A stretch of 64,000 nt of DNA from a virus: IMG/VR virus record IMGVR_UViG_3300030019_000576; one strand, written 5' to 3'. The first letter of the stretch is position 1. Every line of letters starts with the position of its first letter. The notes under the pieces are model-generated. The model did no database searches. It was given only the letters and a program-made list of their open reading frames with translations, and was not told the DNA's origin. A program made the position numbers and the translations under genes. This document shows positions 11,836 to 58,879 of the stretch, in pieces.

Positions 11836-12234
11836 TTATTTATTTTCAAATGCACTATAACTTTCTAACCATGTTGAATTCCATTCCCTGCGGTCATCTT
11901 CCATTTTTTTGTTGAAGAAAAATTCAACAGTTTCACATCCGAAAAAATCTTTAATTTGACTTTCTAAAAATGCTACTGTTAATTTATTTGTACCACAAAT
12001 ATTATAGACTTCCCTTTCAAAACTTTTCCATTTAGGTTGATTAGTCCAAACTGTTACGTGTGTTGTATCATGTGTGAATATGTGGTCTGTATAACCTGCA
12101 AACCATTCTTCTATATTTTTTACATCACCATCAGGACGATGTGACATGTATTTTACAAATTTTAAGAATAATAATTGTTCAGGTGCTAACCTTGCTTCTT
12201 TAATCAGTTTGATTTTACTTCTAACATCACCCAT
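11836..12234 (-). CDS. hypothetical protein (the ORF-track start at 12270 is a TTG; the ATG at 12234 is preferred)
   Basis: The promoter motif at 12251-12285 lies inside the TTG extension; MGDVRSK follows the ATG. Confidence 0.4.
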   Translation of the reverse strand: MGDVRSKIKLIKEARLAPEQLLFLKFVKYMSHRPDGDVKNIEEWFAGYTDHIFTHDTTHVTVWTNQPKWKSFEREVYNICGTNKLTVAFLESQIKDFFGCETVEFFFNKKMEDDRREWNSTWLESYSAFENK

Positions 12235-12534: not shown

Positions 12535-12900
12535 TTATTTTATAAGATTTAATGCAAATCTTAAACCAATTTCTAATGCTTCTTCCCATGTTTTAAAATT
12601 ATGATATTTAACATCAGTATTTTCTAATAAGAAATCATATGATCCAATATTAGTTATTATATCATTTCTATGTATTACTGTTAAATGAATATTCTTTTCA
12701 TCCCTTAACCATTTTTGTAATGATGTTTGTGTTGGTGCTGATATTCTTATTGGAATCAGTAAATTATTACTATATCCACCATGTACTTCATCATCATCAT
12801 CATCATATATATTATAGAAGGTGTAATTAAGTTCAGTATAACCATTATCCTTTGCAAGCATTGCAGTGTCACGTGTCACGTAATCCATTTTATCTTTCAT
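12535..12900 (-). CDS. LQKWLRDE-family protein (paralog 1 of 3)
   Basis: Shares AKDNGY, PTQTSLQKWLRDE and a C-terminal ALEIGLRFALNLI with 12910..13293 and 23677..24108. Confidence 0.5.
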   Translation of the reverse strand: MKDKMDYVTRDTAMLAKDNGYTELNYTFYNIYDDDDDEVHGGYSNNLLIPIRISAPTQTSLQKWLRDEKNIHLTVIHRNDIITNIGSYDFLLENTDVKYHNFKTWEEALEIGLRFALNLIK

Positions 12901-12909
12901 AATATTGTA

Positions 12910-13293
12910 TTAATCAATTAAACTTAAACCATACCTTAAACCGTCTTCAAACGCTTCTTCAAACTTATCATATCTATTAATAGGTTTATCTTTAATATCA
13001 TGATTTACATGCTTACCATTTACGGTGCAAATAAATTCTAAAGTATTATCAAATGATAAAGATTCCCTTGGTGATACATATATTTTAAATTCATCCCTTA
13101 ACCATTTTTGCAAAAGTGCTTGTGTTGGACGTGTTGTATATTCAAGTCCACAATCACCATAACTACGATTATGGTCTTCTTTTTGTGGTACCGTTGACAT
13201 TGGTCTCACCCCTATGAAATATTCATATGTTTTTATTCGAAATCCTTTTTCTTTTGCAATTCTTGCTGTTTCAATTGTTATGTAATCTTCCAT
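12910..13293 (-). CDS. LQKWLRDE-family protein (paralog 2 of 3)
   Basis: ETARIAKEKGF, PTQALLQKWLRDE, EAFEDGLRYGL. Confidence 0.5.
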   Translation of the reverse strand: MEDYITIETARIAKEKGFRIKTYEYFIGVRPMSTVPQKEDHNRSYGDCGLEYTTRPTQALLQKWLRDEFKIYVSPRESLSFDNTLEFICTVNGKHVNHDIKDKPINRYDKFEEAFEDGLRYGLSLID

Positions 13294-13513
13294 TTCTTAT
13301 TTTTTCTATTTTTTGTCTTCTTAATATTAATATTGCTTCTTTGTAAGATAACGACATTTTAAAATCTCTGCAAAATTCAAGTTGTTCAGATAAAGGAAAT
13401 CTATATTTAACTCTATCTTCTTTATTTCTTTGTGTATATATATAATATGCAAGGTTATCTAAATCAGTTGCTTCTTTGAAATTCCATTTTCCACTCTTTT
13501 TATCAATTTTCAT
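13271..13513 (-). CDS. IDK-GxW / EKIEKI-tail small-protein family member
   Basis: MKIDKKSGKW...LDNLAYYIY...RRQKIEKIRNG. Confidence 0.45.
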   Translation of the reverse strand: MKIDKKSGKWNFKEATDLDNLAYYIYTQRNKEDRVKYRFPLSEQLEFCRDFKMSLSYKEAILILRRQKIEKIRNGRLHNN

Positions 13514-13730
13514 TTTTAGATTTCAATTTTAGTATTTTTTCAATTCTTATTTGATGAAATGCTTGTTCATAAAAACTATCTTTATATAGTGCTACCATAA
13601 ATTTCTTTTGTGATGGTACCGAAAAATTTTCACCGAAATTATAATATGTATATAAAAATAATGTATATGCAACATCATCAACTTGTGATGCATTTTCATC
13701 CCATTCACCATGACTTTTATCAATTAACAT
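13503..13730 (-). CDS. IDK-GxW / EKIEKI-tail small-protein family member
   Basis: MLIDKSHGEW...VDDVAYTLFLY...IRIEKILKLK. Confidence 0.45.
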   Translation of the reverse strand: MLIDKSHGEWDENASQVDDVAYTLFLYTYYNFGENFSVPSQKKFMVALYKDSFYEQAFHQIRIEKILKLKSKNEN

Positions 13731-13971
13731 ATTCTATTCTTTTTTTAATTCTTTCAATTTTACAATATCTAATATATATTTCAGCTTCTGTGTAATATTT
13801 TTTTGCAAAATCATCTTTTTCTGAAATTAAACCATGTTGACACAAACCAGGTGCTACTTTATCAGTTATATATAAATAATAAGCAATATCATCTAATTTT
13901 GATGAATTTGAATACCAATCTATATCCCTTATATTTATATTTAGTTTCCTATCACCCTTATCAATTATCAT
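13720..13971 (-). CDS. IDK-GxW / EKIEKI-tail small-protein family member
   Basis: MIIDKGDRK...LDDIAYYLYI...CKIERIKKRIEY. Confidence 0.45.
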   Translation of the reverse strand: MIIDKGDRKLNINIRDIDWYSNSSKLDDIAYYLYITDKVAPGLCQHGLISEKDDFAKKYYTEAEIYIRYCKIERIKKRIEYVN

Positions 13972-13972
13972 A

Positions 13973-14251
13973 TTAAATATTAGTTCTTTCTTTAATTTTT
14001 AATATTTTCAAACTTCTTATTTTCAGAATTTTTTCACTTCTTAATACAAGTTCTGCACTGTTATAAATACCAATGCAACCATTACCTTTATTTTTCCTAT
14101 TAAATGACATTATAAAGGATTGTGATAATACATTATCAATATTTACACCATTGTTTAAAACACGATTTAAATATAACTGATATGCAACATCATCCATTTG
14201 ATTTGAATTTCTATCCCAATCACCCTTACTTTTGTCTATTTTTAATTCCAT
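13973..14251 (-). CDS. IDK-GxW / EKIEKI-tail small-protein family member
   Basis: MELKIDKSKGDW...MDDVAYQLYLN...RSEKILKI. Confidence 0.45.
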   Translation of the reverse strand: MELKIDKSKGDWDRNSNQMDDVAYQLYLNRVLNNGVNIDNVLSQSFIMSFNRKNKGNGCIGIYNSAELVLRSEKILKIRSLKILKIKERTNI

Positions 14252-14483
14252 CTTTTATTTTGTCTATTTTTAATTTTCTAAGTAATAATACATCAACAAA
14301 AAAATTAATATCAGCGAATAAATCAATTCTATTACCCCTAATACAAAGTCTATTGTGAAAATGAAAATCTAAATCAACTATTTTATATTGTTTACCAATG
14401 GTTAAATGTTGTTCAAAAAAATCATCAACTTTTACACACGTTACAATTTGTCCTATTTTAAAGTCTTTGTAGGTTAATTCCAT
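14226..14483 (-). CDS. small protein carrying the family tail motif (divergent member)
   Basis: The C-terminal LLLRKLKIDKIKDG matches the family tail; the N-terminus differs. Confidence 0.4.
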   Translation of the reverse strand: MELTYKDFKIGQIVTCVKVDDFFEQHLTIGKQYKIVDLDFHFHNRLCIRGNRIDLFADINFFVDVLLLRKLKIDKIKDGIKNRQK

Positions 14484-14739
14484 TTTTTATTTTTTCTATT
14501 TTTTCACGTCTTATAATATTTTTTGCTTTTTCATAAACTATTGTATAATAATTATAATTATTTTGATTAACAGAAAGATAAAAATATTCAATAAATGTTA
14601 TTTGTGGGAACATCTTAATCTGAAAAATATCATCAGGGAATTTAATAGTATATTCATTAACATTAAGTTGGTATGCAACATCATCAAGATAACTTGTTTC
14701 TTCCGCACACCAAATACCTTTAGTTTTATCAATCAGCAT
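14458..14739 (-). CDS. IDK-GxW / EKIEKI-tail small-protein family member
   Basis: MLIDKTKGIW...LDDVAYQLNVN...RREKIEKIKNG. Confidence 0.45.
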   Translation of the reverse strand: MLIDKTKGIWCAEETSYLDDVAYQLNVNEYTIKFPDDIFQIKMFPQITFIEYFYLSVNQNNYNYYTIVYEKAKNIIRREKIEKIKNGINLQRL

Positions 14740-23676: not shown

Positions 23677-24108
23677 TTAAAGCGTTTTTAATGCTTCTTT
23701 CAATCCTATTTCTAAAGCTGTTTCGTATTCACTTTCAAAATACATAGCATTATGTAGTGAAACAAAACATTCTTCACTTGTTGGATCTGGTTTAATAACA
23801 TTTGCATAAAACCCAATATTAGTTGTCAATGCATATGTGAATGTTTCACGTGGTGTTACGTGCAAGTTATATTTCTTGCGTAACCATTGCTGTAATAAAC
23901 TTTGTGATGGTCTTGTAATTTCTTCAAACGTTTCATTAGAACGGTCTGAAAAATGATTTGCTGAACTACCTTCAAATCCCTTCCATTTACCAACTTCAAC
24001 TATTCCGTTTTCTTTAAGTCCAACTAAAAAATAATGACCACAACATGTGTGAAATCCTTTTTCTTTTGCAAGTTTTGCTGTTTCTATATCTACTAAAACT
24101 TCTACCAT
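23677..24108 (-). CDS. LQKWLRDE-family protein (paralog 3 of 3)
   Basis: ETAKLAKEKGFH, PSQSLLQQWLRKK, ALEIGLKEALKTL. Confidence 0.5.
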   Translation of the reverse strand: MVEVLVDIETAKLAKEKGFHTCCGHYFLVGLKENGIVEVGKWKGFEGSSANHFSDRSNETFEEITRPSQSLLQQWLRKKYNLHVTPRETFTYALTTNIGFYANVIKPDPTSEECFVSLHNAMYFESEYETALEIGLKEALKTL

Positions 24109-24109
24109 A

Positions 24110-24460
24110 TTAATATTTTATAATTTTATAATTAAAATTCAGTGGTTCTTCGTGTCTTGGGATTATATTATCTTTTACATCAAGGTATTTAATACACATC
24201 TTTTTGAAAAATATTCTTGTTTCGAAATCACCCATATCTAAAACGTTACTATAAAAATTCCAATTTTCATAATTTATCCATAATATATTAATTTCGAAAT
24301 TTTGTTTAAATAAGATATTACCTCTTTTCGAATACCAATATAAAGTATCATTTTTTAATTCTGATGTCATTCCATCAATATCATTGATAAAACATTTTTC
24401 GATACCTGAAATTCTACTTTCTTTTATTCGTTTAATTTTATCAATTATTGTATTTATCAT
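24110..24460 (-). CDS. DKIxxIK-SRLS family protein (start moved to ATG 24460; track start 24478 is a TTG)
   Basis: MINTIIDKIKRIKESRISGIEK. Confidence 0.45.
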   Translation of the reverse strand: MINTIIDKIKRIKESRISGIEKCFINDIDGMTSELKNDTLYWYSKRGNILFKQNFEINILWINYENWNFYSNVLDMGDFETRIFFKKMCIKYLDVKDNIIPRHEEPLNFNYKIIKY

Positions 24461-24722
24461 AATAACGTTTTCTTTCAATTAATTGTTTTAATCTTTCTAA
24501 CTTTTTACGTCTTGTACATATTACAAAATCTATTCCATTTAAAAACGTTAAATTTATTTGATTATTATCATAATTAAAACCGAGTTCAAATTCAATATCA
24601 TAATCATATTCATTTTTGAAATAAAAAAATATTTCATCTCGAATTTCATTCTTAACAGAATTACACATTATCTTAAATGTGTATTTTTTTAATATATCAT
24701 GAATATCATCTTCTATTTTCAT
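24441..24722 (-). CDS. hypothetical protein
   Basis: Co-oriented ORF with a basic C-terminal tail. Confidence 0.35.
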   Translation of the reverse strand: MKIEDDIHDILKKYTFKIMCNSVKNEIRDEIFFYFKNEYDYDIEFELGFNYDNNQINLTFLNGIDFVICTRRKKLERLKQLIERKRYYDKYNN

Positions 24723-24970
24723 AAATTTAAACTATACTTTTTTCCAAAATGTATTTCAACAAATTCAAAAACATATGGAAATTGGTCAAGTGTTAAATTA
24801 CCAATAACACCTGTTAATGTCAGAACCATACAACCGTTAGAAAATTTATTTCTAAATAATTGTTCTTTTGGTTTAGATTTTGAAAGCATTCTTTCAAGAT
24901 CAACCTGAAATTTACCAACGGACCTCATTCTACTGTACTTCACAGCTTTTATTTTATCCCTTATGTCCAT
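24719..24970 (-). CDS. DKIxxIK-SRLS family protein
   Basis: MDIRDKIKAVKYSRMRSVGK. Confidence 0.45.
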   Translation of the reverse strand: MDIRDKIKAVKYSRMRSVGKFQVDLERMLSKSKPKEQLFRNKFSNGCMVLTLTGVIGNLTLDQFPYVFEFVEIHFGKKYSLNL

Positions 24971-25170
24971 AATTCTTTGTCATTAAAATACATTTCACTT
25001 ATATCTATACCTTTACAATATTCTAAGTATTCTTCTTCACTGCAACTAATTTCCATTTTATCAAAATCAGGTTGTGACATTGCATATTCTATCCAATCAT
25101 GTGTTGAAGTTCTTGCAGACTTAATAGCTTTTATTTTTTCAACAATCGTCATCTTCTTCATCATTTTCAA
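24961..25170 (-). CDS. DKIxxIK-SRLS family protein (short, divergent)
   Basis: ...TIVEKIKAIKSARTS. Confidence 0.35.
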   Translation of the reverse strand: MKMMKKMTIVEKIKAIKSARTSTHDWIEYAMSQPDFDKMEISCSEEEYLEYCKGIDISEMYFNDKELWT

Positions 25171-27207: not shown

Positions 27208-28191
27208 TTATTTTTTAAAACGGTTAATAAATGTTTCTGCAAATTTTATATTCCCTTTTTCTTCTTTTTTATGTTGAAGAATTTCTTCACAAATTTCTAA
27301 TCCTGCTTCAATATAAGATATATCTGAATTTTCATCAATCTTACTAATATTAGAATAGTCAGAAATTGGATAATACTGGTTATATTTTTCGACTCCAAAT
27401 CTTCCACTTATTTTATTATATTCATCTGATTTACAAAAATCTTCATATGACATACCGAATATTTTTATATCTTTTTCTAATTTTTCTGCATTATATTTAT
27501 CTAAAATTTCTTTAGTATATAAATGTGCAGCTTGAATAGTTTGTTCAACTTCGGATATAGACATAATATCTTTTATCACTTTATCAATATTTTCACTGAA
27601 TGTAGCATTTTTCCAATCACCATATTCTGCAACATCTTGGTCTGCACCACTTGCTTCTTTATATATACATCCATCTTTGAAACCATAACCAGTTCCTATT
27701 GTACATAATAAATAATCTGAAACATTTTTTTTAGTTTTGAACATATGCGAATATTTATAATCTTTAGACATAAATATTTCATACCAATCTACCATTGTTT
27801 TATTTACCTTTAGAATATTTTTCTGTAATTTAGATAGTTCTACACCACTAAATACCATTTTTGAAAATTCTTCCCAATTTTCTTTTTGTTCATTCATACT
27901 ACAATGCATACCCCATGCATCATAAATCAAATCTTCAATTTCACCTGATAGTGGTTTACACATTTCAATTTTATATTTTGGATTATCTTCGCATTGTCCA
28001 TTACCACGTTTTGAATCACGAAGAATACCATCATAACCCCAACAAATACGACCAGCATACCATAATGTATCATACATATACCCAAGTTTTGCTAACTGTG
28101 GTAAGTTTTCAGGTTGTGTTAAATACACTTGATTCTTTTTAATTATATTAAGAATCTTATCAATAACCAATTTTTCGAATTTAAATGTCAT
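27208..28191 (-). CDS. hypothetical protein (327 aa)
   Basis: Long ORF; no recognisable motif. Confidence 0.45.
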   Translation of the reverse strand: MTFKFEKLVIDKILNIIKKNQVYLTQPENLPQLAKLGYMYDTLWYAGRICWGYDGILRDSKRGNGQCEDNPKYKIEMCKPLSGEIEDLIYDAWGMHCSMNEQKENWEEFSKMVFSGVELSKLQKNILKVNKTMVDWYEIFMSKDYKYSHMFKTKKNVSDYLLCTIGTGYGFKDGCIYKEASGADQDVAEYGDWKNATFSENIDKVIKDIMSISEVEQTIQAAHLYTKEILDKYNAEKLEKDIKIFGMSYEDFCKSDEYNKISGRFGVEKYNQYYPISDYSNISKIDENSDISYIEAGLEICEEILQHKKEEKGNIKFAETFINRFKK

Positions 28192-30926: not shown

Positions 30927-31850
30927 TTAAATTAAATATTTATCACCTTTACCATATTTTTGTAGCATCTTAATAGATGAACTACTTACATGTTCAAATT
31001 CTGAATCAGATAAGATATTAATAACCTTAATATCAGGTTTTAAATCTTTTAGATAACGATATTGTGTTTTTTCAAATTCTAAATCACTTGCATTTCTTAA
31101 TCCACGAATAAGTGTTACATCATATCCTAACCCATCAATGAAATCAGTTAGCAATCCAGTATAAAGTCCTGCTTGTCTATTTTTTAGTGTATTAGTTAAT
31201 GGTAATAGTTCATCTGACTTAGAAGTATTAATTCCACGTGCGATTATTACTTTATCAAAAATAGCTTCTGCTTTCTTCAATATATCATAATGTCCTACAT
31301 GAAATGGGTTAAAAGAACCTGCATAAACACCAATATTATATTTACGGTATTTAATATAATCAAGATATTCTTGTTTAATATTACCAAAATGCTTTTCTAA
31401 GAATTTAATTCTATTTTCTGTATATGTTTTTACATCAACAAATTGGTATTCTTTAAAAATACCATCTTCATATTTCATAAATGAATTGAAATCACCATAT
31501 AATACTGATAAATCATATTTATTCAATAGTTTAGAAGTTGGATTTACATCAATGTGATTCTTGGTAGCTAAAATTGCTTCATAAACATCAGGATAATTAA
31601 AAAATGTTTTAAAAAGTTCTGCTGACTTTTCTTCATTATCATTATTCATTGGATCATATACTATATCATGGAATACAATAGCAAGAAGTAATTCATCTGA
31701 TAATTTGTTATCATCTATTGCTTTCCCTATTAAATCCAATACATGATTCCAAGTATGGTAAAAACGTTGTGGTTCAGAATATCTTTCTTTGTAAAAATCC
31801 ACTAATCCCATTTTTTCCGAAATCAATTCTTCTATTAGTTTTATATCCAT
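30927..31850 (-). CDS. coaD: HD-domain protein fused to phosphopantetheine adenylyltransferase
   Basis: N-terminal HTWNHVLDL...VFHDIVYDP is an HD motif. The C-terminal half carries GVYAGSFNPFHVGHYDIL (HxGH), LIRGLRNASDLEFE and HVSSSSIK, colinear with E. coli CoaD (TFDPITNGHIDIV, LIRGLRAVADFEYE, ISSSLVK). Confidence 0.7.
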   Translation of the reverse strand: MDIKLIEELISEKMGLVDFYKERYSEPQRFYHTWNHVLDLIGKAIDDNKLSDELLLAIVFHDIVYDPMNNDNEEKSAELFKTFFNYPDVYEAILATKNHIDVNPTSKLLNKYDLSVLYGDFNSFMKYEDGIFKEYQFVDVKTYTENRIKFLEKHFGNIKQEYLDYIKYRKYNIGVYAGSFNPFHVGHYDILKKAEAIFDKVIIARGINTSKSDELLPLTNTLKNRQAGLYTGLLTDFIDGLGYDVTLIRGLRNASDLEFEKTQYRYLKDLKPDIKVINILSDSEFEHVSSSSIKMLQKYGKGDKYLI

Positions 31851-31854
31851 AATA

Positions 31855-32337
31855 TTATTTTTTAAACTGTTTATGCATTTTTGCTGTAAAATCTACACTT
31901 TCTATTCGTCTCCATTTTAAATTTGTTTCATATTTCATTGAGTCATATATATGTGCTCTTTTCATAATTTTATATGGAAGTTCACATTTTTCTTTAACCC
32001 ATTCAAATAATTCAATATTTTCTTTTGGTATATAATATTTAACCCAACCTTCATGTCCACGTTGTACCATTATTCCTGTTGTTTCTTGAATAAAATCTAA
32101 TGCACAATCATAAGATTCATACATATAATTTTCCCTCCAATAATCATAATACAAATCAGTTACTTTTGCAACAAAGAACCATTTAAATTCAATATATGCT
32201 TTTACCCTTTCATCAAACTGTTTTGGAAAAGGTGTTGGTTTTATTTTATCTTGTTTTTCATGCTTTTTCATTAAATATTTACTTGCGTAATAATTAATGT
32301 TTATTATATTATAATCAGACGATTTCTTTTCTTTCAT
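31855..32337 (-). CDS. hypothetical protein
   Basis: Co-oriented ORF. Confidence 0.4.
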   Translation of the reverse strand: MKEKKSSDYNIININYYASKYLMKKHEKQDKIKPTPFPKQFDERVKAYIEFKWFFVAKVTDLYYDYWRENYMYESYDCALDFIQETTGIMVQRGHEGWVKYYIPKENIELFEWVKEKCELPYKIMKRAHIYDSMKYETNLKWRRIESVDFTAKMHKQFKK

Positions 32338-32404: not shown

Positions 32405-32647
32405 TCATCTTTTACCTTCTTTAAATGATTCTTTTGTCTTGTTTGAAAATGTTATTAAGTCTTCCAATGTTAAATTAAATTTATTCATTGAAAAACATTC
32501 AATAGCACCTATTAAATCTGTTAGTTCACATATTTGTAGAACTTTATCACCCTGTTCAATTGCATCAGTTAGTTCATCAATTTCTTCTTGAATCTTTGAA
32601 AATTCACCGATTACACCTTTTTTAATTTCGTTTTTATGATAACCCAT
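32405..32647 (-). CDS. MazG/HisE-like all-alpha NTP pyrophosphohydrolase (tentative)
   Basis: 80 aa with IQEEIDELTDAIE...ELTDLIGAI, matching the paired EExxE/D helical motifs of small MazG-like enzymes. Confidence 0.35.
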   Translation of the reverse strand: MGYHKNEIKKGVIGEFSKIQEEIDELTDAIEQGDKVLQICELTDLIGAIECFSMNKFNLTLEDLITFSNKTKESFKEGKR

Positions 32648-33194
32648 TTTTATATTTTTTTATTAACGTTGATAATCGTGGTTCAGCACATCCTGTTCCG
32701 TAAATCCATTTTAAGAATTCACATTCTCTTATACCATAACTTCCTAATTCGTTACCGTCAATAGTAATATCAAAACCTATTTCAGTTTGTACAACATCTA
32801 AATTTTGTTTAAAATATTGTTGAAAAAATTCGTATGATATTTTTATAATTTTTTGTAATTCTTCTTCATTTACCACATCAGTTTTTATTAATTCATTTTT
32901 AATAAAATATTGCATGTGTAAATAATCTACTGACTCATTACGAAAGCATGGTGTCGAACCTTGATAAGTTCCATGAGGAAGAAATTCTTTCAAATATAAA
33001 TATAAAAAAGATTGTTCACCGCTTGCAACTAATCGTTTATTATTAACATTTAGTTGAAATGGTGTTTTATTCTTTGGTCTTGTTATATCATCAACATATG
33101 GTGAAACCGTCCAAGGTAATTCAATACGTTGAAATCCATTTTCAGTATAATATTTTACTGAATCATCTAATAATTTGAAATCTATCATAGTCAC
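32634..33194 (-). CDS. class II aminoacyl-tRNA synthetase-like / AsnA-like catalytic-core protein (truncated)
   Basis: TPCFRNESVD matches class II motif 2 (fRxE); 186 aa, with no anticodon-binding domain. Confidence 0.35.
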   Translation of the reverse strand: MTMIDFKLLDDSVKYYTENGFQRIELPWTVSPYVDDITRPKNKTPFQLNVNNKRLVASGEQSFLYLYLKEFLPHGTYQGSTPCFRNESVDYLHMQYFIKNELIKTDVVNEEELQKIIKISYEFFQQYFKQNLDVVQTEIGFDITIDGNELGSYGIRECEFLKWIYGTGCAEPRLSTLIKKYKNGLS

Positions 33195-34317: not shown

Positions 34318-34686
34318 TTATTTTGTATATTTTACAAGATTATCCCAATCGCTACTATCTTTTTCTTCCATCCAAACATGTATTATTTTATCGTTAAAAA
34401 TATTATACTTTTTAACAGTTTCTTTTATGAAATCTGATATTTCATCGTTTGTCATTTTGCATTCATAATAAAGTTTTTCCCATAAATCTTCAATAACCCA
34501 CATAGTTAAAGTTGATTCATAATATTGAATCATTATATTATTATCAACACCAAAATATTTATTACTAAGTTGATTTTTAACTTTTATCTTACCTATACCA
34601 AAAGTATAATCAAGAAAAATCCGTTGTGCAAGGGTTAATCTTGATTCCTTTATTCGATGTATTTTATCTAAAATACTATTTGACAT
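34318..34686 (-). CDS. DKIxxIK-SRLS family protein
   Basis: MSNSILDKIHRIKESRLTLAQR. Confidence 0.45.
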   Translation of the reverse strand: MSNSILDKIHRIKESRLTLAQRIFLDYTFGIGKIKVKNQLSNKYFGVDNNIMIQYYESTLTMWVIEDLWEKLYYECKMTNDEISDFIKETVKKYNIFNDKIIHVWMEEKDSSDWDNLVKYTK

Positions 34687-35080
34687 AGTTGTGTTTCCTT
34701 TCTATACTATTAAGATGTCTTATAATATGTTTCCATGATTTGTTTTCCTTATGTCTTATAATGATATCCGAATCTTTTATATCGTAATTTTTATTAAAAA
34801 AATCATTTATAACTTTTTTTAATTCAGATGCATTCTTTATAGGAAGTATTAAATTACTTGCTGAATTACCCCAAAATAGTTCATTATCCAAATGTAGTAT
34901 AGTTTTAAGTACAGTCCTTTCTATTTCAAATAGTATACGACCATCCTTTATATAAAATAATGATGTAGGGTATTGTTTATGTCTAAATGGTGTAATATTA
35001 ATACATAAACCAATTAAATATCGTTCATTATCACTTAATCTACTATATTTTATAGTTCTTATTTTATCTAACATTTTCAT
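34676..35080 (-). CDS. DKIxxIK-SRLS family protein
   Basis: MKMLDKIRTIKYSRLSDNER. Confidence 0.45.
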   Translation of the reverse strand: MKMLDKIRTIKYSRLSDNERYLIGLCINITPFRHKQYPTSLFYIKDGRILFEIERTVLKTILHLDNELFWGNSASNLILPIKNASELKKVINDFFNKNYDIKDSDIIIRHKENKSWKHIIRHLNSIERKHNYVK

Positions 35081-35411
35081 ATTGTTTTAAATTATCCCAC
35101 CAATCTTGTTGACTATCTGAAATAACATCTATTTTATATCCTAAAATATTTAAATGAACATGAAACATTTTATAAATAAAATCTTCAATATCCCAATCAT
35201 TCTTAACACTTACAATCATACACCATAACGTCCTATTAACCCATACTGATTTACCTTTCGTGTTTTGTTCAAATACACAACCACGTGTGTTATACCACCG
35301 AATTATATTATCACTCACTTGATGGGGTTTAATACAATCAATAGCATCAATAAAAGTTCTTTCTTCTTTTGATAATCTACTATATTTAATTTTTTTTATT
35401 TTATCTTTCAT
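35064..35411 (-). CDS. DKIxxIK-SRLS family protein
   Basis: MKDKIKKIKYSRLSKEER. Confidence 0.45.
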   Translation of the reverse strand: MKDKIKKIKYSRLSKEERTFIDAIDCIKPHQVSDNIIRWYNTRGCVFEQNTKGKSVWVNRTLWCMIVSVKNDWDIEDFIYKMFHVHLNILGYKIDVISDSQQDWWDNLKQYENVR

Positions 35412-35722
35412 ATATCTTTCAATGAAAATTCAGTTATATGAATTTTTAAATATCGACTAATAGTTTTCCATATTAAAGATTCTGTTTCATATGAATTTAA
35501 TCTTAATTTTTGACTTAAATTATAAAAAAGTTCCGTACTAAATACAATTGAACCATAATCATTAAATAGAAACTTTGTAAAGTAAAAAAGTTTTTTACTA
35601 TTTTTTGTATAATAAAAAAAACCATTTTCTTCAACTATTTTAACATCATCAAAAATGATGCATTTCATCATTTCTTTTGGTGTAAGTCTACTGTATTTAA
35701 TTTGTCTTATTTTATCTTTCAT
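35408..35722 (-). CDS. DKIxxIK-SRLS family protein
   Basis: MKDKIRQIKYSRLTPKEM. Confidence 0.45.
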   Translation of the reverse strand: MKDKIRQIKYSRLTPKEMMKCIIFDDVKIVEENGFFYYTKNSKKLFYFTKFLFNDYGSIVFSTELFYNLSQKLRLNSYETESLIWKTISRYLKIHITEFSLKDI

Positions 35723-36069
35723 AAATATTCTATTGTGAAAAAGGTCATCCTAATTTTAAAATGCAAAGCAATAGTTTTCATAATTAATAATTCTGTTTCA
35801 TTTGTATCTAAATGTAATTTTTTACGTAATCTATAAAAAAGATTATGACTAAATACAATTTCACCATATTTTGGATCATCAGTAAATGCAAATTTTCTAA
35901 AGTAAAAAATATTTATATTATTTCGTTTATAATTTATACTATTTCGTTTATAATATATTCTTCCACCTTCTTTATTTGTTTCCACACCATCCACAATGAA
36001 ATATCTCATGATTTCTTTTGGTGTCATTCTACTATATTTGATTCTTTGTATTTTATCTTTTATGTTCAT
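35719..36069 (-). CDS. DKIxxIK-SRLS family protein
   Basis: MNIKDKIQRIKYSRMTPKEI. Confidence 0.45.
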   Translation of the reverse strand: MNIKDKIQRIKYSRMTPKEIMRYFIVDGVETNKEGGRIYYKRNSINYKRNNINIFYFRKFAFTDDPKYGEIVFSHNLFYRLRKKLHLDTNETELLIMKTIALHFKIRMTFFTIEYL

Positions 36070-36392
36070 TCTTGCATTATTTTACAAACTATTTCATAAT
36101 CATACCAATCAAAGTAATCTATGCACATTTTTTTTGCATAGATTAATGCATCTTCTTTTTTATATCCAAATGTTTTAACTAATGGGTATATAACATTAGT
36201 ATAATTAATAGAAACATATTTATTTTTTTTATCTACTTGAAATATAGTTTCACCTTCACTGTTTTCATAAAAATAGTCACTTCTCGGTAAAAAAAGTTTA
36301 TGTGATTTTACATTATCAAATAAATCAATAATCCATTTATCAGAACCTGATAAACGTAATCTTTTAATATGTCTTATTTTATCTTTAATCAT
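36066..36392 (-). CDS. DKIxxIK-SRLS family protein
   Basis: MIKDKIRHIKRLRLSGSDK. Confidence 0.45.
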   Translation of the reverse strand: MIKDKIRHIKRLRLSGSDKWIIDLFDNVKSHKLFLPRSDYFYENSEGETIFQVDKKNKYVSINYTNVIYPLVKTFGYKKEDALIYAKKMCIDYFDWYDYEIVCKIMQE

Positions 36393-36788: not shown

Positions 36789-37010
36789 TTATTTTATATG
36801 TAAGATTTTGTTTGTAAATTTAACAAAAATTAATTTGTTAATGAATTTTGTGAATTTCGATTTTGGAAAAAGTGGTTTAAATATTATTGGTACCAAAAAT
36901 ATCCACCAACGTTGTAAAAATGTTATATCTATTTTTAATATACTTGAAATAAGTAATAATAAAAGTACTGTCATAATGACACAAATCATGTAAAATGTTG
37001 AAATTCTCAT
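36789..37010 (-). CDS. small membrane protein
   Basis: Two hydrophobic helices. Confidence 0.35.
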   Translation of the reverse strand: MRISTFYMICVIMTVLLLLLISSILKIDITFLQRWWIFLVPIIFKPLFPKSKFTKFINKLIFVKFTNKILHIK

Positions 37011-37014
37011 ATTT

Positions 37015-37260
37015 TTAATTTTTAATTTTTAATTTTCTTGTTATTTCATACAATTGACCAAACCTATTCACTTTTGCTGAAAAAAAGGAACTATCTATTT
37101 TTATGATAACATCATAATTGGTGTATGTAAATAGTGTATTTAAATTATGAACATCAGTTGTATCAATTACTTGAAATTTTACTGAACTGTCTATTGTTGT
37201 GTGATAACCACAACTTGAAAGTCCTAACACTAATAGGACACATAATACTAATTTTTTCAT
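37015..37260 (-). CDS. lipoprotein
   Basis: MKKLVLCVLLVLGLSSCGY, a signal peptide with a lipobox Cys. Confidence 0.5.
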   Translation of the reverse strand: MKKLVLCVLLVLGLSSCGYHTTIDSSVKFQVIDTTDVHNLNTLFTYTNYDVIIKIDSSFFSAKVNRFGQLYEITRKLKIKN

Positions 37261-46478: not shown

Positions 46479-47024
46479 TTACGTTGTTTTTAAATGTTTT
46501 TTCCATTCTTTATAACCCGCAATTGATAATATTATTAATAATAAATTATACCCTGCGATGTAATACATATCTTGATGAAGACATAATATAATTAACATTA
46601 CATTATTTATCATAAAAATCCACCAAGATTCAATAACCTTTTTAACTAATAAATATGTTGCAAGTAGTGCGATAATACCACCTATACCATCAAGATATAA
46701 TAAATTATTATTAGTTGTTTTAGTTAATAATGTAAAGATAATACCAATCACCATGCATATTCCTATGCATAGTGCTGATTTAGTATATCCTATTTTTGTA
46801 ACTTCTTTTGTATCAACTTCATTCCATTTTACCCAACCATACGCACATTGACCAACTGAAACAAGTTGTAATACCATCTGTGAATAAAAGTTTACATTAT
46901 AAAAGTAATAGGTTAATAGTACTGCACTAATTAATCCAAATACCCAACAAAGTAGATTTTGTTTAATTGTTAAAAACACACTTACTATTCCAATAATGAC
47001 TGAAATTAATTCAATATTTTTCAT
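46479..47024 (-). CDS. pnuC: nicotinamide riboside transporter
   Basis: CAYGWVKW and C-terminal ESWWIFMINNVM...IAGYNLLLIILSIAGYKEW align with PnuC (NIYGWYAW, ENWLLWVIINV...). Its start overlaps the receptor stop (TAATG). Confidence 0.8.
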   Translation of the reverse strand: MKNIELISVIIGIVSVFLTIKQNLLCWVFGLISAVLLTYYFYNVNFYSQMVLQLVSVGQCAYGWVKWNEVDTKEVTKIGYTKSALCIGICMVIGIIFTLLTKTTNNNLLYLDGIGGIIALLATYLLVKKVIESWWIFMINNVMLIILCLHQDMYYIAGYNLLLIILSIAGYKEWKKHLKTT

Positions 47025-48997
47025 TAAAATTTAACTTTAACTGTTGTATAAAAATTAAGTGGAGCACCTATAAAATAAGCATTTTCCCCATTTGAAACAT
47101 ACCCACCCGTAAAGTATTTAGTGTTAGTTAAATTATTACCTTGAATTGATAAGTTTACATTTTTAGTTAATTGATAACCAATTTTTGCATTGAATAATAC
47201 ATAACCAGGAATTGTTTCAGTATTTGCAGGATTAATAAATGCATCCGATAAATATCGACCAGATACGTTTATAAAGAGCTTACCGTTGTTGTATTCAATA
47301 TTCTGATTAACTATTACATTTGGTGTATAAAGTGCGTGATATGATGTGTTATCACCTTTAATTTCACTATTCATTAATGTTGTATTATTATTTATAGATA
47401 AATTTTTTGTAAGATTACATGAAAAATCAAATTCTGCACCATAACGTGAACTTTTATCTACATCTGTCATTAATGGTAAACTATTTAACCCCATTGCACC
47501 TAATTGTGTAATTTCATTATTAAAGTCCATATAAAACAAATTACTTTGAAGTTTCACAACACTATTTGATAAGTTATAACCAAGTTCATAGTCAATAACA
47601 CTTTCAGGTTTAATTATAAATAAATCAACTAAATTATCATTCCCACCGAACATGTCACTTCTTGTAGGTTCACGGTGTGATTGACCAACCGAAAAATACA
47701 AAGATTCATTATTTGTAATTGTGTATGTCACACCCCCACGTGGATTTAAAAACAACCAATTAATTCGTTTCATTGGATTATCACCTATGTAAGTGAAGTT
47801 AACATTACGTAATTGTAAGTCAGTAAATAAACTAAATTTATTTATATCATAATTTGCTTTGATGTAAAAACTTCCTTCGTTTTTATATCCAGTATTTGTA
47901 TATAAGGAATCAATCTGAACAGAACCAGGGTGTGTCATATTTCCACTGTGTGTTCGATTATATGTATTAAGCTGAAATCCAGTGTTAAATTTTAAATCAT
48001 TATATTTTATAAGATAATTTGATGTGAACCCAACGAAATTAGAATTTAATCCAAAATTAAGCAAGTCAGTTGGTGCAGTAAACATACCCCATTTACCATC
48101 TAAATGATTGTAAAAGAAAGTATTTGTTAGAACATAATTACTTGATTCACTATGAACATATTGTAACTGTACAAAACTTTGATTAAAATCATCATTTTCA
48201 CCTTTAGGGTTATAATTTGTGCGAGGGTCTTTTAATATATCAGATTCTGATACTGCATACCATGCCATTTGATTAATTGATTTACCCGAAAATGCAGTCA
48301 ACTTTAATACATCCTTATTACCATAGTATCCACCCGAAAGAAATGCTGAATAACCACTACCACTTGAATTATATTTATACCCATCACTTGTATATTCTGA
48401 TACACTACCAAATAACGCAAATTTATTAATTAAACCCGTACCAAAATTAACATTAAGTGATTGTGTTCCAAAACTACCCGATGTAAAACTTGCATTAAAA
48501 CCTTTATCTAAACCTGTTTTACTTTCAAAATTAATACTACCACCATATGAAGATGTACCATTTGCTGATGTACCAATACCACGTTGGATTTGCATAGAAT
48601 TAATATTCATTGCGAAATTAGGAAAATTGCTAAAATATACCCCTTGGTCTTCACTTTCATTTAACGGAATACCATTTAATGTCATATTTATACGTGTTTG
48701 GTCAATTCCACGAATTCGAAATGATACATATCCATTAGGTTGACCACCATCAGATTGTGATGTAATTGATGGTGTTTTATCTAAAATATACACCATTTCT
48801 TGACCACTGTATTGCTTATCAATGTCAACACTATTGACAACTTTTTGGGAAATAGGTGTTTTAATATCTGGTCGAATACCTACAACTTCCACGTCATTTA
48901 ACTTTACTACTTTTACAGTATCTTTTGATACTTGCGAATAAGAGGTAAACACATTAAATAATGCGATAACCAACACAAAAAATTTAATTTTCTTCAT
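47024..48997 (-). CDS. TonB-dependent outer-membrane receptor
   Basis: Signal peptide MKKIKFFVLVIALFNVFTSYSQ, an N-terminal plug region, a long beta-barrel with alternating aromatic strands and a C-terminal ...VKVKF (terminal Phe). Confidence 0.7.
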   Translation of the reverse strand: MKKIKFFVLVIALFNVFTSYSQVSKDTVKVVKLNDVEVVGIRPDIKTPISQKVVNSVDIDKQYSGQEMVYILDKTPSITSQSDGGQPNGYVSFRIRGIDQTRINMTLNGIPLNESEDQGVYFSNFPNFAMNINSMQIQRGIGTSANGTSSYGGSINFESKTGLDKGFNASFTSGSFGTQSLNVNFGTGLINKFALFGSVSEYTSDGYKYNSSGSGYSAFLSGGYYGNKDVLKLTAFSGKSINQMAWYAVSESDILKDPRTNYNPKGENDDFNQSFVQLQYVHSESSNYVLTNTFFYNHLDGKWGMFTAPTDLLNFGLNSNFVGFTSNYLIKYNDLKFNTGFQLNTYNRTHSGNMTHPGSVQIDSLYTNTGYKNEGSFYIKANYDINKFSLFTDLQLRNVNFTYIGDNPMKRINWLFLNPRGGVTYTITNNESLYFSVGQSHREPTRSDMFGGNDNLVDLFIIKPESVIDYELGYNLSNSVVKLQSNLFYMDFNNEITQLGAMGLNSLPLMTDVDKSSRYGAEFDFSCNLTKNLSINNNTTLMNSEIKGDNTSYHALYTPNVIVNQNIEYNNGKLFINVSGRYLSDAFINPANTETIPGYVLFNAKIGYQLTKNVNLSIQGNNLTNTKYFTGGYVSNGENAYFIGAPLNFYTTVKVKF

Positions 48998-52355: not shown

Positions 52356-52796
52356 TTATTCTGGAATTAAAAAAGGAAGTAATTTTATTTTTTTACATTT
52401 ACCTGTTACACTGTTAAATATAGTGTTGTTTATCATTGATTTATACTGAATATAATATTCTTCTTTGTTTGATTCTTCTTTACAAACATTTTCACGATTA
52501 AAATTCTTATAAATCATAGATTTCACATAACATGCGATGGTTTCATCTGCATGTCTTTTACCGACTTCAATAGTATAATATTCTTTAATTTTTTTATATA
52601 CTTCTTCATTCATAATTAGATAGTTATCTTTTATATCATATCTAAATATTTCTTTATTTTTTGTTTTATAATTTACAAGATAATCACTATCCCAATCTCT
52701 AATTTCTTTTAAAGAAAATAATAGTTTTAGAAAGTAACTTTCTGATTTTGGTATTCTGTCCTTTTTAATTAATAATATTTTATCTTTTATTGTCAT
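52356..52796 (-). CDS. DKIxxIK-SRLS family protein
   Basis: MTIKDKILLIKKDRIPKSES. Confidence 0.45.
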   Translation of the reverse strand: MTIKDKILLIKKDRIPKSESYFLKLLFSLKEIRDWDSDYLVNYKTKNKEIFRYDIKDNYLIMNEEVYKKIKEYYTIEVGKRHADETIACYVKSMIYKNFNRENVCKEESNKEEYYIQYKSMINNTIFNSVTGKCKKIKLLPFLIPE

Positions 52797-53215
52797 AATT
52801 TAAATTTCAATATTCTTTTTATAAAACTGTATTTACTTTTATGTTTTATTTCCTCTTTTAATTTTAAAACTTGGTTTTTTGACATCATTCTACCAATTGT
52901 TATGGGTGATGTTTCTAATTTATCTTTTATTATAGTGAAGTAACCGTTTTTATTTTCATATAATAATTCTTTAAAAAGTTCAATACCAAGTTGTTCATCA
53001 ATATTATACTGCATTGCTCTTCCAATTACTTTATATATTAAAAAAAATGTGTTATGTGTATTATTATATTCAAATATACAAGTATCATCCTTAATAAAGT
53101 ATATGTCATTTTTACACTCTAAAATTTCTATATTATTCAATAAGTTTTCTAAATCGAATATATATGTATTATACCTACTTCTTTTAATAAGTTTTATTTT
53201 ATCTTTTATATCCAT
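52793..53215 (-). CDS. DKIxxIK-SRLS family protein
   Basis: MDIKDKIKLIKRSRYNTY. Confidence 0.45.
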   Translation of the reverse strand: MDIKDKIKLIKRSRYNTYIFDLENLLNNIEILECKNDIYFIKDDTCIFEYNNTHNTFFLIYKVIGRAMQYNIDEQLGIELFKELLYENKNGYFTIIKDKLETSPITIGRMMSKNQVLKLKEEIKHKSKYSFIKRILKFKL

Positions 53216-53520
53216 GAATGAGGTGATTTTCTACATTTAAAAATTTCAATACCGGTTGTATACTTTACTAAGTATTTTTTTATAGTTGATTCAACATCTA
53301 TCCACTTTAAATTAAATTCTATTTCAAGTTTATCCCATACTTCACGTCTAATGAAAATAGTTTTATACATATAATCGGTTTCTAATATTATAGAATCATT
53401 ACAAGTATAATACCATGAAGTACCTTGCTGTACTAAGTTTTCGAATATCCCCTTTAAATAATATTCTTCGGGTGACATTCTACTAAGTTTTATTTGTTTT
53501 ATTTTATCTAACACTTCCAT
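53206..53520 (-). CDS. DKIxxIK-SRLS family protein
   Basis: MEVLDKIKQIKLSRMSPEEY. Confidence 0.45.
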   Translation of the reverse strand: MEVLDKIKQIKLSRMSPEEYYLKGIFENLVQQGTSWYYTCNDSIILETDYMYKTIFIRREVWDKLEIEFNLKWIDVESTIKKYLVKYTTGIEIFKCRKSPHSWI

Positions 53521-53860
53521 CTTCTATTTGTTTATTTATTAAATAAAAATCTTCATATGGTCTTAATTCACAATCTTCCCAACCTAAATTATTTTTTAAT
53601 AACTTTCTAAGAAGTAAGATTACTTCATGGTCATTATATCCAAATTTATTAATTAAATTAAACCAAATTTTATCTTCTACATATATAAGATTAGTAAATT
53701 TCTTTTTAAGAAATGCAATATTTTTCATATACCTATATATTTCAGAAGTTGCATCCCATTGTTCAACATAGACGTATTCTAACCCATTTATTATAGTTAA
53801 TAAATATTTTTCAACTTCACTTAGACGTGAATACTTTATTCGTTTTATTTTATCTATCAT
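53504..53860 (-). CDS. DKIxxIK-SRLS family protein
   Basis: MIDKIKRIKYSRLSEVEK. Confidence 0.45.
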   Translation of the reverse strand: MIDKIKRIKYSRLSEVEKYLLTIINGLEYVYVEQWDATSEIYRYMKNIAFLKKKFTNLIYVEDKIWFNLINKFGYNDHEVILLLRKLLKNNLGWEDCELRPYEDFYLINKQIEDGSVR

Positions 53861-53862
53861 AT

Positions 53863-54198
53863 TTAATAATTTGAAGATCCATACACTTCTTTAATTTTAA
53901 GACCTGTGTACAGTGTGACTATATTTTTAACAATTGGATGTATATCATCCCATTCTAAATTATATTTATATTTTAAACCACTTAAAATATTTTTACCAAT
54001 GTATAAATACATCCAACAATTACAGAAAGAAAAATATTCCACATCTTGATCATATCTATCTTTTTTTGTCATAGATTTGAAAAATATCTGATCACTTTGT
54101 TTATGATATACAGAATATGAATCATCTAAAAAACTTATTATATACTTTTCAGCTGGACTTAACCTTTCTAATTTTATTTTTCTTATTTTATCTATCAT
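53863..54198 (-). CDS. DKIxxIK-SRLS family protein (start moved to ATG 54198; track start 54216 is a TTG)
   Basis: MIDKIRKIKLERLSPAEK; a promoter motif overlaps the TTG extension. Confidence 0.45.
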   Translation of the reverse strand: MIDKIRKIKLERLSPAEKYIISFLDDSYSVYHKQSDQIFFKSMTKKDRYDQDVEYFSFCNCWMYLYIGKNILSGLKYKYNLEWDDIHPIVKNIVTLYTGLKIKEVYGSSNY

Positions 54199-54293: not shown

Positions 54294-55430
54294 ATGAAAA
54301 AAATGAAAAACTTTAATGAATTTATATTTGAAGGTATAGATATCAATAAAAAACAGTTTATAGTAAACAAAATTTTATCACATTTAAAAATAAAATTGTT
54401 TTATGTATCCACTTATCAAATGTCATTCACTATGATATTACCATTGATGGAAAAATTCTTTGAAGGAAATAGATTTTCATTTGATAAAACACCATATAAT
54501 AAAACATTGTTATACATATACGCATATTCTATTTTATGCTATGAAAACAAAGATAAGTTAAGAATTATTTATGATGAACTACATTCTAAAAATATTCAAG
54601 ATAAAGAAATACAATATGCTATAAATGTTTTGAATAATATAAAATTATTATTTATTAAATTGATGGATAGTTCTGATAAGCATATTAAAACTTTCATTGA
54701 TGTATTAAAAAATAATGCATTATTTATACCTTACTTATCAGTACTTACTTCTTTGATAAATAATGAAAGATTAAATATTGAATTATTCACTGGAAAATTT
54801 GCAGATTTCCAACTTGAATTAGGGGAAGAAAACTTTAATATATTGATAATCAAGATAATAAATAAAATGAATATTATAGCAGGTGGTACAAATAAGTTAC
54901 AAAATAAAGAAAATGCAAAACCATTCTTAGTAAATGATGAATTTAAATCACCAATGTATCAATCAGAAAAACCATTTATATATGATAATCTTACAGAAGG
55001 TATAAATGATTATTTAACAGGTCCAAGTGATGAAGAAATAATGAAAAAAAATCATCTAATTGGATTATCCCCTGATAGATTATTAGTTGATTCAAGTAAA
55101 ATAGGTTATTTAGTTGGTGTAAAGAAAGCATTAGAATCGGGTGCTGATTTACATTGTGATGAAGATAACGCACTTGTATTAGCATGTAAAAATGGTAAAG
55201 CAGATGTAGTAAAATATTTAATAGAACAAGGTGCAGATGTACATACTGGAAATGATGAACCATTAAAAATGAGTGCTTTTTCAGGTTCATTAGATACATT
55301 CAAAGCTGTTATTGATTCGGGTGAAGAATTTGACGGTGAAACACAATCAATAGTAGCAGATTATGCATTTACATCTGATGCTTTAATGGATTATATAATG
55401 GAAATTTGGGAAGCAGATGATTTAAAATAA
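54294..55430 (+). CDS. ankyrin-repeat protein
   Basis: The C-terminal third has at least three ANK repeats (ALESGADLHCDEDNALVLACKNGKADVVKYLIEQGADVHTGNDEPLKMSAFSGSLDTFKAVIDSG). Confidence 0.55.
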   Translation: MKKMKNFNEFIFEGIDINKKQFIVNKILSHLKIKLFYVSTYQMSFTMILPLMEKFFEGNRFSFDKTPYNKTLLYIYAYSILCYENKDKLRIIYDELHSKNIQDKEIQYAINVLNNIKLLFIKLMDSSDKHIKTFIDVLKNNALFIPYLSVLTSLINNERLNIELFTGKFADFQLELGEENFNILIIKIINKMNIIAGGTNKLQNKENAKPFLVNDEFKSPMYQSEKPFIYDNLTEGINDYLTGPSDEEIMKKNHLIGLSPDRLLVDSSKIGYLVGVKKALESGADLHCDEDNALVLACKNGKADVVKYLIEQGADVHTGNDEPLKMSAFSGSLDTFKAVIDSGEEFDGETQSIVADYAFTSDALMDYIMEIWEADDLK

Positions 55431-57814: not shown

Positions 57815-58879
57815 TTATTTAAAATTGTTAAGTTTTGAAAGTTGATTTAATAATTCTTCTTCTTCATCCGTTATTTGTTTTGGTATTGTTAAATTAACAA
57901 CTACTAATAAATCACCTCTATTACCACGTTGGTCTGCTAATCCCTTACCTTTAAGTTTTTTAACATCATTTGGTTTAGTGAATTTATTTATTACTATTTT
58001 AACATCACCTTCTAACGCTGGTATAATTGCTTCACCACCTAATATTAGCTTAGTATATGGAAGATATAAATTAAATATAAGATTTTGTCCGTCTCTTTGT
58101 AATTGTGTATTATTAATAACATCTATAAATATAATAAGATTCCCATAAATTCCACCATTTCCTGGTCTAATAGGTGAATTACCTTTACCACTTGCTTGAA
58201 ATTTATCACCATGATTAATACCTTTTGGTACGTTCACATTTAATTCTGTTTCTTCCTTTACAACACCAGTACCTTTACATTCATTACATTCATGTGTAAT
58301 AATATATCCATCACCTTTACATTTAGGACAGTCAACAGTTGACATAATTATGGTTGAACCCATTTGTCTTTTCATGTTTACCTTACCCGAACCATTGCAA
58401 TCTGAACAAGTATCGTGTTCCCCACCCCAACCATCACAAGATTTACATTTAACTTCACGATTATATTTAATCTTTTTATCTAACCCACTGATAACATCAG
58501 TTAAATCAATAGAAATTTTTAATTTAATATCATATCCACGTTTTATATTACGATTTGGTTGTGATTGAAATCCACCACCAAATCCACTGAATCCACCGAA
58601 TGCACTACCAAACATATCAGCGAATATATCACCTGAATTAAATCCACCAAACCCTGTTGGACCATCTGGATTACCATAGTTATCATAATTAGATTTTTTA
58701 GCATCATCACCTAAAACAGAATATGCTTCTGAAAGGTCTTTAAATTTTTCTTCGAAATCTTTATGTTCAGGATTCTTATCAGGGTGATATTTTTTTGCTA
58801 AGTTTCGGTATGCTTTTTTAATATCATCTTTTGATGTATTTTTATCTACACCTAAAACTTCATAATAATTTTTTGACAT
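57815..58879 (-). CDS. dnaJ: molecular chaperone DnaJ (type I: J domain, G/F region, four CxxCxGxG repeats, C-terminal domains)
   Basis: YYEVLGV...[13 protein letters not shown] includes the HPD motif. A G/F-rich linker follows, then [32 protein letters not shown]. Confidence 0.8.

Follow-up and report, generated by a model that had tools for sequence, protein, structure and literature searches.

The 64,000-nt viral record IMGVR_UViG_3300030019_000576 (referred to below, at its full length, as the window) is 25% GC, carries nearly all of its genes on the minus strand, and contains a family of small paralogous open reading frames (ORFs) whose predicted products open with a shared signature. 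The original prediction, made from the letters of the DNA, listed 14 such ORFs in three tandem arrays (A, B, and C) and gave their products as 100-146 aa. All 14 paralogs were found where they had been placed, as minus-strand ORFs opening with (D/E)KIxxIKxxR, and each carries the motif (D/E)-K-I-x-x-I-K-x-x-R-(L/M). The count nevertheless had to be raised to 15, since a search with a family hidden Markov model (HMM) identified a solitary copy, S1 (E = 4.5e-10 to 6e-10), in which the motif is relaxed to S-K-I-K-L-I-K-E-A-R-L. The size range also needed widening, to 67-146 aa, on account of the short members A2 and A3. Together, the 15 family genes account for 5,130 bp (8%) of the window (Table 1). 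A count of the pattern [DE]KI..I[KR] in the minus-strand proteins of the window gave 15 matches, 13 of them N-termini of this family, whereas composition-preserving shuffles averaged 0.3 and never exceeded 3.

The members of arrays B and C are contiguous and lie head-to-tail, with neighbors that overlap by 4-17 nt or are separated by a 2-nt gap and with stop codons overlapping start codons. This packing suggests that each array is probably one co-translated set. The consecutive arrangement thus described holds for B and C and is interrupted in A, where an unrelated ORF that is not a family member lies between A2 and A1. Judged from their sequences, A2 and A3 look like degenerate copies. In a variant of A2 from another sample (P0011), an in-frame 5-aa deletion removes YSRMR, including the otherwise invariant arginine of the motif, which suggests that A2 is decaying. 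A protein identical to A1 (P0001) is present in 13 metagenome contigs.

Table 1. Family members and other features of the window.
Feature	Coordinates	Strand	Length (aa)	Remarks
S1	11836-12234	-	132	solitary, diverged 15th member; begins MGDVRSKIKLIKEARLAPEQ
A1	24110-24460	-	116	full member; length from ATG
A2	24719-24970	-	83	motif-only member, probably degenerate
A3	24961-25170	-	67-69	motif-only member, acidic; motif VEKIKAIKSAR
Array B	34318-36392	-		B1-B6, contiguous
B1	34318-34686	-	122	
B2	34676-35080	-	134	
B3	35064-35411	-	115	
B4	35408-35722	-	104	recent duplicate of B5
B5	35719-36069	-	116	
B6	36066-36392	-	108	first gene of array B; start overlaps stop of upstream gene
Array C	52356-54198	-		C1-C5, contiguous
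C1	52356-52796	-	146	
C2	52793-53215	-	140	
C3	53206-53520	-	104	
C4	53504-53860	-	118	structure-predicted member
C5	53863-54198	-	111 or 117	first gene of array C, adjoining a divergent intergenic region; 111 aa from ATG, 117 aa from upstream TTG at 54216
Non-member ORF	24441-24722		93	between A2 and A1
Second paralog array	13271-14739	-	75-93	six genes, two unrelated body types
Second-array gene with different body	14226-14483	-		body MELTYKDFKIGQ...HLTIGKQYKIxDLDFHF
Third paralog family	12535-12900, 12910-13293, 23677-24108	-		ETAxxAKEKGF ... PTQxLLQKWLR
Two genes downstream of array B	32405-33188			
Small ORFs near array B	36789-37260			
TonB-dependent receptor	47024-48997	-		full: Plug and barrel
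Ankyrin-repeat gene	54294-55430	+		divergently adjacent to array C
DnaJ	57815-58879	-		complete

A shared N-terminus of this kind could in principle be a nucleotide-level signal, such as a translation-initiation region or another cis element, with no true protein family behind it, and the original prediction had itself named a motif without protein similarity past about 15 residues as the observation that would overturn it. In a leave-one-out analysis, the motif and six further residues were removed and each protein was scored against a profile of the others, with 200 shuffles for comparison. Twelve of the 14 listed proteins scored 17-42 bits against shuffle maxima of 12-24, and none of the 200 shuffles reached the real score; A1, for example, scored 42 bits (shuffle maximum, 16.5). 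BLASTP without the motif likewise paired B4 with B5 (E = 6e-20), A1 with B3 (E = 6e-5), and C3 with C5 (E = 4e-4). A2 and A3 showed no similarity past the motif (the A3 score was reached by 24 of 200 shuffles), and S1 was marginal (10 of 200). Depending on the model used, the family HMM recognized A3 with E values from 0.0055 to 5.6e-11. The claim that the proteins diverge strongly after the N-terminus therefore describes A2 and A3, which have the motif alone in common, and has to be qualified for the other 12, which are recognizably homologous over the whole domain.

The codons of the motif point the same way. Within the window, serine is encoded by AGT or TCA, arginine by AGA, CGT, or AGG, and leucine by TTA, CTT, or CTA. 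Synonymous variation is also free in relatives from other contigs, at aspartate (GAT or GAC), at the acidic position (also GAG), at serine (TCA or AGT), at arginine (AGA or AGG), and at lysine; among the relatives on contigs L001, L004, and L009, the first isoleucine codon of the motif is ATT in five cases and ATA in three. No conserved sequence was found upstream of the start codons of the window members. Two local biases were seen: the first isoleucine is ATA in 13 of 14 window copies (background, 41-49%), and Ser11 is AGT in eight of 10 (background, 29%). Neither bias is seen in related phages; common descent, gene conversion, or a local effect on expression could explain them. These biases, together with the two members that share nothing but the motif, are what a nucleotide signal would have in its favor. 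Against it stand the synonymous variation in relatives, the lack of conservation before the ATG, the homology of 12 of the 14 without the motif, the 903 sequence clusters that carry the domain, and a confidently predicted common fold (both described below), and we consider it extremely improbable as an account of the family. For the 12, codon variation in the window and in relatives and homology over the whole domain rule it out; for A2 and A3, similarity past the motif provides no such rejection. Trimmed profiles and codon variation accordingly bear out the prediction of a real, protein-level paralogous family.

Other readings of the DNA at the arrays were also considered. An alternative genetic code that splits or fuses genes was rejected, as code 11 covers 91% of the window with tightly abutting ORFs and recoding of TAG or TGA adds little. 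The arrays yielded no Rfam or tRNA matches and no structural RNA. DNA repeats at the arrays consist of the coding motif and the B4/B5 duplication, the latter as repeats of 198 and 140 nt with a match of ~72%, and nothing else.

Structures were predicted by AlphaFold for two members, C4 and S1. The C4 model, obtained with AlphaFold2 from a 20-sequence alignment, had a predicted local distance difference test (pLDDT) score of 91.3 and a predicted template modeling score of 0.80, with helices at residues 2-11, 15-25, 63-72, 77-92, and 105-113 and strands at 28-30, 39-44, 47-53, 58-62, and 98-102. The S1 model showed the same order of elements (H-H-E-E-E-E-H-H-E) at a pLDDT of 73.8 overall and ~80-87 in the domain. 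It is thus well supported by modeling that the family has a single α/β domain of ~100 residues with the predicted order α1-α2-β1-4-α3-α4-β5(-α5). The signature motif forms helix 1 and the start of helix 2 of this single domain, with a motif pLDDT of 80-96. In an alignment of 82 members, the columns of at least 70% identity were K4, I5, I8, K9, R12, L13, E17, F50, and W66. Conserved polar residues fall essentially all within the first 17 positions (D3, K4, K9, R12, E17), and the domain body keeps only the class of its hydrophobic core, with no polar constellation. This distribution argues against a role as an enzyme.

The residues K4, I5, I8, K9, and R12 of helix 1 lie within ~140 degrees of the helical wheel, and helix 1 contributes a net charge of about +3 to +4 in every member. 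The proteins as a whole vary widely, with isoelectric points (pI) of 4.9-9.9 and net charges of about -4 to +11 among the window copies and charges of -10 to +7 in the domain bodies. A membrane-targeting amphipathic helix is unlikely, given a mean hydrophobicity of -0.44 and a hydrophobic moment of 0.07-0.30, which is weaker than that of the FtsA membrane helix (0.57) and no better than that of MinD (0.27). Foldseek found no convincing match in the PDB (best E = 0.46), and the best match of the family profile among all PDB sequences (E = 0.04) was not convincing either. In BFVD, Foldseek returned weak but consistent matches to seven uncharacterized "uncultured Caudovirales phage" proteins (A0A6J5L9N2, L5S8, L9L5, L6U7, LB14, L5U3, and L9Q5), with E values of 3e-3 to 4e-2, probabilities of 0.97-1.00, TM scores of 0.49-0.58, and identities of 9-14%. 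These are the best structural matches to the family and carry no functional information; from the similarity of their UniProt accessions, the seven may share an origin and possibly form a multi-copy family too.

The original prediction had not recognized the family, and searches of curated resources agreed. Nothing above noise was found in Pfam, PHROGs, NCBIfam, or PADLOC. The 14 listed members and 10 broader relatives had no hit to the SUKH or Imm models of Pfam at E <= 0.1 to 1; for HORMA_2 (PF18173) there was neither a Pfam match above the gathering score nor a HORMA fold. Among 5027 PADLOC models, a single chance-level match was obtained (Cas6, E = 0.008, in one of 20 members). A literature search on paralog families of megaphages and jumbo phages returned no description of this family. 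It is well supported that the family is a previously undescribed protein domain that has undergone a lineage-specific expansion in the window.

The metagenomic search proposed for the motif family was run as a profile search and showed the family to be large. A word-indexed search recovered 12 proteins only, and an exhaustive HMMER search of 1.84 billion representatives recovered 903 cluster representatives at E <= 1e-3, 141 of them at E <= 1e-10. The top 150 relatives are mostly single-domain proteins of 100-135 aa that start M-x-(I/L)-x-D-K-I-K-x-I-K-Y-S-R-L-K-P-E-E-R-F-L. Relatives come mostly from AT-rich uncultured phage contigs; the single-domain relatives have a median pI of 8.7. Distant phage contigs (L001, L006, and L016-L019) each carry a single family copy, which suggests that the expansion is specific to the lineage of the window.

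Two departures from this single-domain form were found. In many relatives, the C-terminal tail contains two to four extra copies of an 11- to 12-residue element, ~12 residues apart, that duplicates the end of helix 4 plus strand 5 (consensus ..VEEHLxxKDVTP). Examples are VDRNTKLGGLTP, four times in L017 (1258-1800), VERHTNLGSLTP, twice in L016 (474-908), and EEHLIKKDVTP in P0040; P0025 and P0015 also carry tail repeats, and none of the 15 window members does. Four multi-repeat relatives (P0013, P0014, P0015, and P0087) consist of three to six tandem domains without helix 1. One of these, P0014, is encoded amid housekeeping genes on the chromosome of a Cyclobacteriaceae metagenome-assembled genome (MAG). 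On the MAG contig JAHCHY010000003.1 (L008, 10022-11788), the 588-aa protein MCW5910069.1 has five tandem domains without helix 1; its gene lies between prfA and an aminotransferase gene, with an MFS transporter also near, and no mobile-element genes were present among the neighbors examined. In the bacterial multi-repeat homologs, R-T-K-E-E-A-F opens each repeat.

Narrower searches found little, and each has a limit of its own. With C4, P0048, and the family consensus as queries, tblastn against 50,697 phage records gave no match at E <= 10, a result that probably reflects low-complexity masking of the lysine-rich queries and does not establish absence from published phages. In general, negative tblastn results for AT-rich phage proteins are not trustworthy, as the filter seems to mask most of such lysine-rich queries. 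A separate tblastn-type scan with P0014, a one-sequence query that undercounts, recovered its own Cyclobacteriaceae MAG contig. Exact-pattern scans of IMG/VR and GTDB, which also undercount, found one viral contig (L006, single copy) and no genomes. In megaphage LR745206, the family HMM was run over 42 kb surrounding the TonB-receptor gene, the only megaphage stretch scanned, and detected no member.

To follow turnover, the array B locus was compared across the window and two related phages, represented by contigs L004 and L009. The window has six family copies at this locus, L004 has three plus one, and L009 has three, the last of which is cut by a TnpB-like ORF. The best matches of the family genes to the window are 33-46% identical in L004 and 37-62% in L009. 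Around them, identity to the window is 78 and 86%, respectively, for the SPFH protein, 64 and 69% for the HNH protein, and 43-49 and 46-70% for the small ORFs near array B, and it is 84-86% in L004 for the two downstream genes, a region that the L009 contig does not cover. Taken over both phages, protein identity to the window amounts to 64-86% for the larger flanking genes, 43-70% for the small ORFs, and 35-66% for the family genes. The L004 array has no one-to-one orthology with the window copies. In L009, the B1 ortholog is 54-56% identical and truncated to 71 aa, the B2 ortholog is 37% identical, and P0006, the B5 ortholog, is 62% identical. At L009 3092-4229, the shortened B1 ortholog is followed directly by the TnpB-like ORF, whose N-terminus looks like that of an IS200/IS605 TnpB.

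The ratio of non-synonymous to synonymous substitution (dN/dS), estimated over whole genes by NG86 and only rough in a 25% GC genome with synonymous sites near saturation, was 0.41-0.88 for family orthologs and recent paralogs (0.88 for B4 versus B5), 0.07-0.36 for larger flanking genes, and 0.36-0.57 for small neighbors. Family proteins evolve and turn over faster than their neighbors. Because synonymous sites are close to saturation, the ratios denote faster protein evolution, not proven positive selection. Expansion and diversification, which the original prediction had linked to diversifying selection, were thus confirmed as faster divergence and changing copy number; positive selection was not, as the ratios stay below 1 throughout. 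The interpretation given in the original prediction is thus supported in part.

The window encodes a primase, two RNA ligases, a NadR-type enzyme, DnaJ, SPFH and HNH proteins (the latter nucleases), radical-SAM enzymes, an ankyrin protein, and a TonB-dependent receptor. The best matches of the receptor are in megaphage LR745206 (51% identity), in LR756502, in the 735-kb LR756501 and LR756503, and in Lak phages; these megaphages have been described previously (PMC9723777). No structural or protease genes, tRNAs, or Rfam matches were found in the window, and the standard genetic code fits it. It is well supported that the window derives from a phage related to the 630-735 kb megaphages and that the arrays lie in a non-structural, accessory part of the genome. 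Several JGI and ENA metagenomes also contain this phage (99.5-100% nucleotide identity). Neighbors of family members include a radical-SAM enzyme, SPFH and HNH proteins, a macro-like protein, and an ankyrin protein.

What lies at these loci is, in sum, a large uncharacterized domain family with 15 copies in the window, operon-like arrays, accelerated divergence, and copy-number turnover. As to function, we tentatively favor, on grounds that are mostly inferential, the view that the arrays encode binding modules without enzymatic activity, expressed together and serving host takeover or counter-defense. The proteins would be soluble, with helices 1 and 2 on a fixed scaffold as the constant part and a fast-changing surface as the variable one. 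Each paralog would then bind a different host or phage macromolecule, and duplication, divergence, and loss within the arrays would track changing targets. Several points weigh against this proposal. The conserved face of helix 1 could be purely a structural packing face, not a functional handle. Multi-repeat homologs sit in a bacterial chromosome among housekeeping genes, which implies that serving as a viral weapon is not inherent in the domain. In more distant phages the family is present as single copies, and expansion is accordingly no general trait of the family. Finally, all whole-gene dN/dS values for orthologs are below 1, and the divergence is accounted for equally well by relaxed constraint and by an arms race.

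Three other functions can be set against binding modules of this kind. The proteins might be small nucleic-acid-binding regulators in which K4, K9, and R12 contact DNA or RNA and the paralogs recognize different sites, as the positive charge of helix 1 in every member and the basic pI of the single-domain relatives would suggest. We find this doubtful, however, since B1, S1, and A3 are neutral or acidic (pI 4.9-6.1), the charge of the domain bodies spans -10 to +7, no match to a helix-turn-helix or other DNA-binding model was obtained, and no candidate operator was seen to recur in or around the arrays apart from the coding motif itself. A scaffold of self-associating proteins, in which strand β5 and the end of helix 4 are swapped between molecules to give chains or lattices and the paralogs are subunits of one assembly, would be in keeping with the tail repeats of the β5 element in many relatives and with the proteins of three to six tandem domains, and co-translated arrays would fix the stoichiometry. 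Yet the tail repeats are missing from all 15 window members, and a copy number of six, three plus one, or three among close relatives fits a defined assembly poorly; we regard this alternative as quite improbable.

A role as capsid-targeted, ejected internal proteins of the T4 internal-protein or phiKZ inner-body type is likewise unlikely. In that case, the N-terminus would direct packaging or targeting to the capsid, and the remainder would be cargo injected against host defenses. T4 internal-protein genes occupy similarly plastic regions, and the T4 protein IPI* is an anti-restriction protein. The resemblance to T4 IPI, IPII, and IPIII is real in that these too are small phage proteins from plastic tandem loci, with a short conserved N-terminus on diverging bodies and a suspected role against host defenses; the conserved ~17-residue N-terminus and tandem variable arrays seen here, as well as the conserved glutamate (E17) after the motif, would suit such proteins. 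The bodies in the present family are homologous over their whole length, however, not along a leader alone, and the conserved segment lies in helices 1 and 2 of the one fold, not in a detachable leader. Prohead proteases cut at (L/I)-x-E in T4 and at (S/A/G)-x-E in phiKZ, and the consensus S-R-L-K-P-E-E-R-F fits neither rule: its leucine sits four or five residues before glutamate residues, and S-x-E occurs in a minority of members. In addition, the bacterial multi-repeat homologs keep R-T-K-E-E-A-F at the starts of their repeats, and the window contains no structural or protease genes.

Binding modules that diversify in tandem have counterparts in other systems. Ankyrin, BTB, and F-box expansions in giant viruses, and host-takeover modules in large phages, are lineage-specific multigene families. 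The present family resembles them in its many diverged copies of a small domain, its accessory clusters, and a copy number that differs between close relatives; it departs from them in that they use well-known interaction domains, whereas this domain matches no curated family or solved fold. The SUKH and other immunity (Imm) proteins of polymorphic toxin systems are also small α+β proteins encoded as tandem, diverged paralogs (Zhang et al., 2011, PMC3113570; Zhang et al., 2012, PMC3482391). Such immunity proteins work as binders with no enzymatic activity, are frequent in Bacteroidota, and have also been taken up by DNA viruses (PMC3113570; PMC3482391). Unlike them, the family has no match to a SUKH (SMI1_KNR4 and others) or Imm profile and no SUKH-like fold, and no toxin genes were seen beside the arrays or beside the bacterial homolog.

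The window contains a second tandem array of six small paralogous genes with two unrelated body types. Five of the six have the body MxIDKSKGxW...LDDVAYQLY, and the sixth has a different one (Table 1). All six end in L-R-x-x-K-I-x-K-I-K, an ending that is kept in 26 database homologs and that, read from the free end inward, matches the K-I-K-x-I-K-x-x-R-L at the N-terminus of the first family. This likeness raises the idea, an improbable one in our estimate, that the terminal helix is a portable basic tag carried on either terminus of different small proteins. If so, the helix would be a common address or handle for localization, packaging, or docking on one machine of the host or phage; the likeness may also be a coincidence in a proteome rich in lysine and isoleucine. 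The VEEHLxxKDVTP strand motif, repeated at the C-terminus of relatives, might be another interaction element that can be exchanged.

Megaphage genomes consist mostly of genes without assigned functions, and one family of such genes is now defined, with a modeled domain and ~900 clusters. It is a candidate new entry for family databases and a tractable candidate for screens of host interaction or counter-defense in Bacteroidota, and its importance would rise if the terminal helix were a general targeting or docking tag. At present, the description is solid as to the genes and the predicted domain, and expanded families of this type are to be expected in very large phages.

Some further features of the window were recorded. 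The TonB-dependent receptor is full, with Plug and barrel, and the DnaJ gene is complete. The ankyrin-repeat gene on the plus strand is divergently adjacent to array C, and in L001, an unrelated contig, the lone family member is likewise flanked by ankyrin genes. A scan for sigma-70 promoters and terminators around array C found fewer sites than in shuffles and was uninformative. A third paralog family of three genes has one copy directly downstream of A1 and two just upstream of S1, and by adjoining both, it appears to travel with the DKIK family in two places. Contig L010, otherwise 99.5% identical to the window, does not differ from it inside array A. The two differ at 52 positions, by 51 substitutions and a single 1-base indel, which are confined to 27229-27287 and 31706-31944, at the 3′ end of a 327-aa ORF and at the 5′ end of a 307-aa ORF plus the region upstream of it, in tracts that look like recombination patches.

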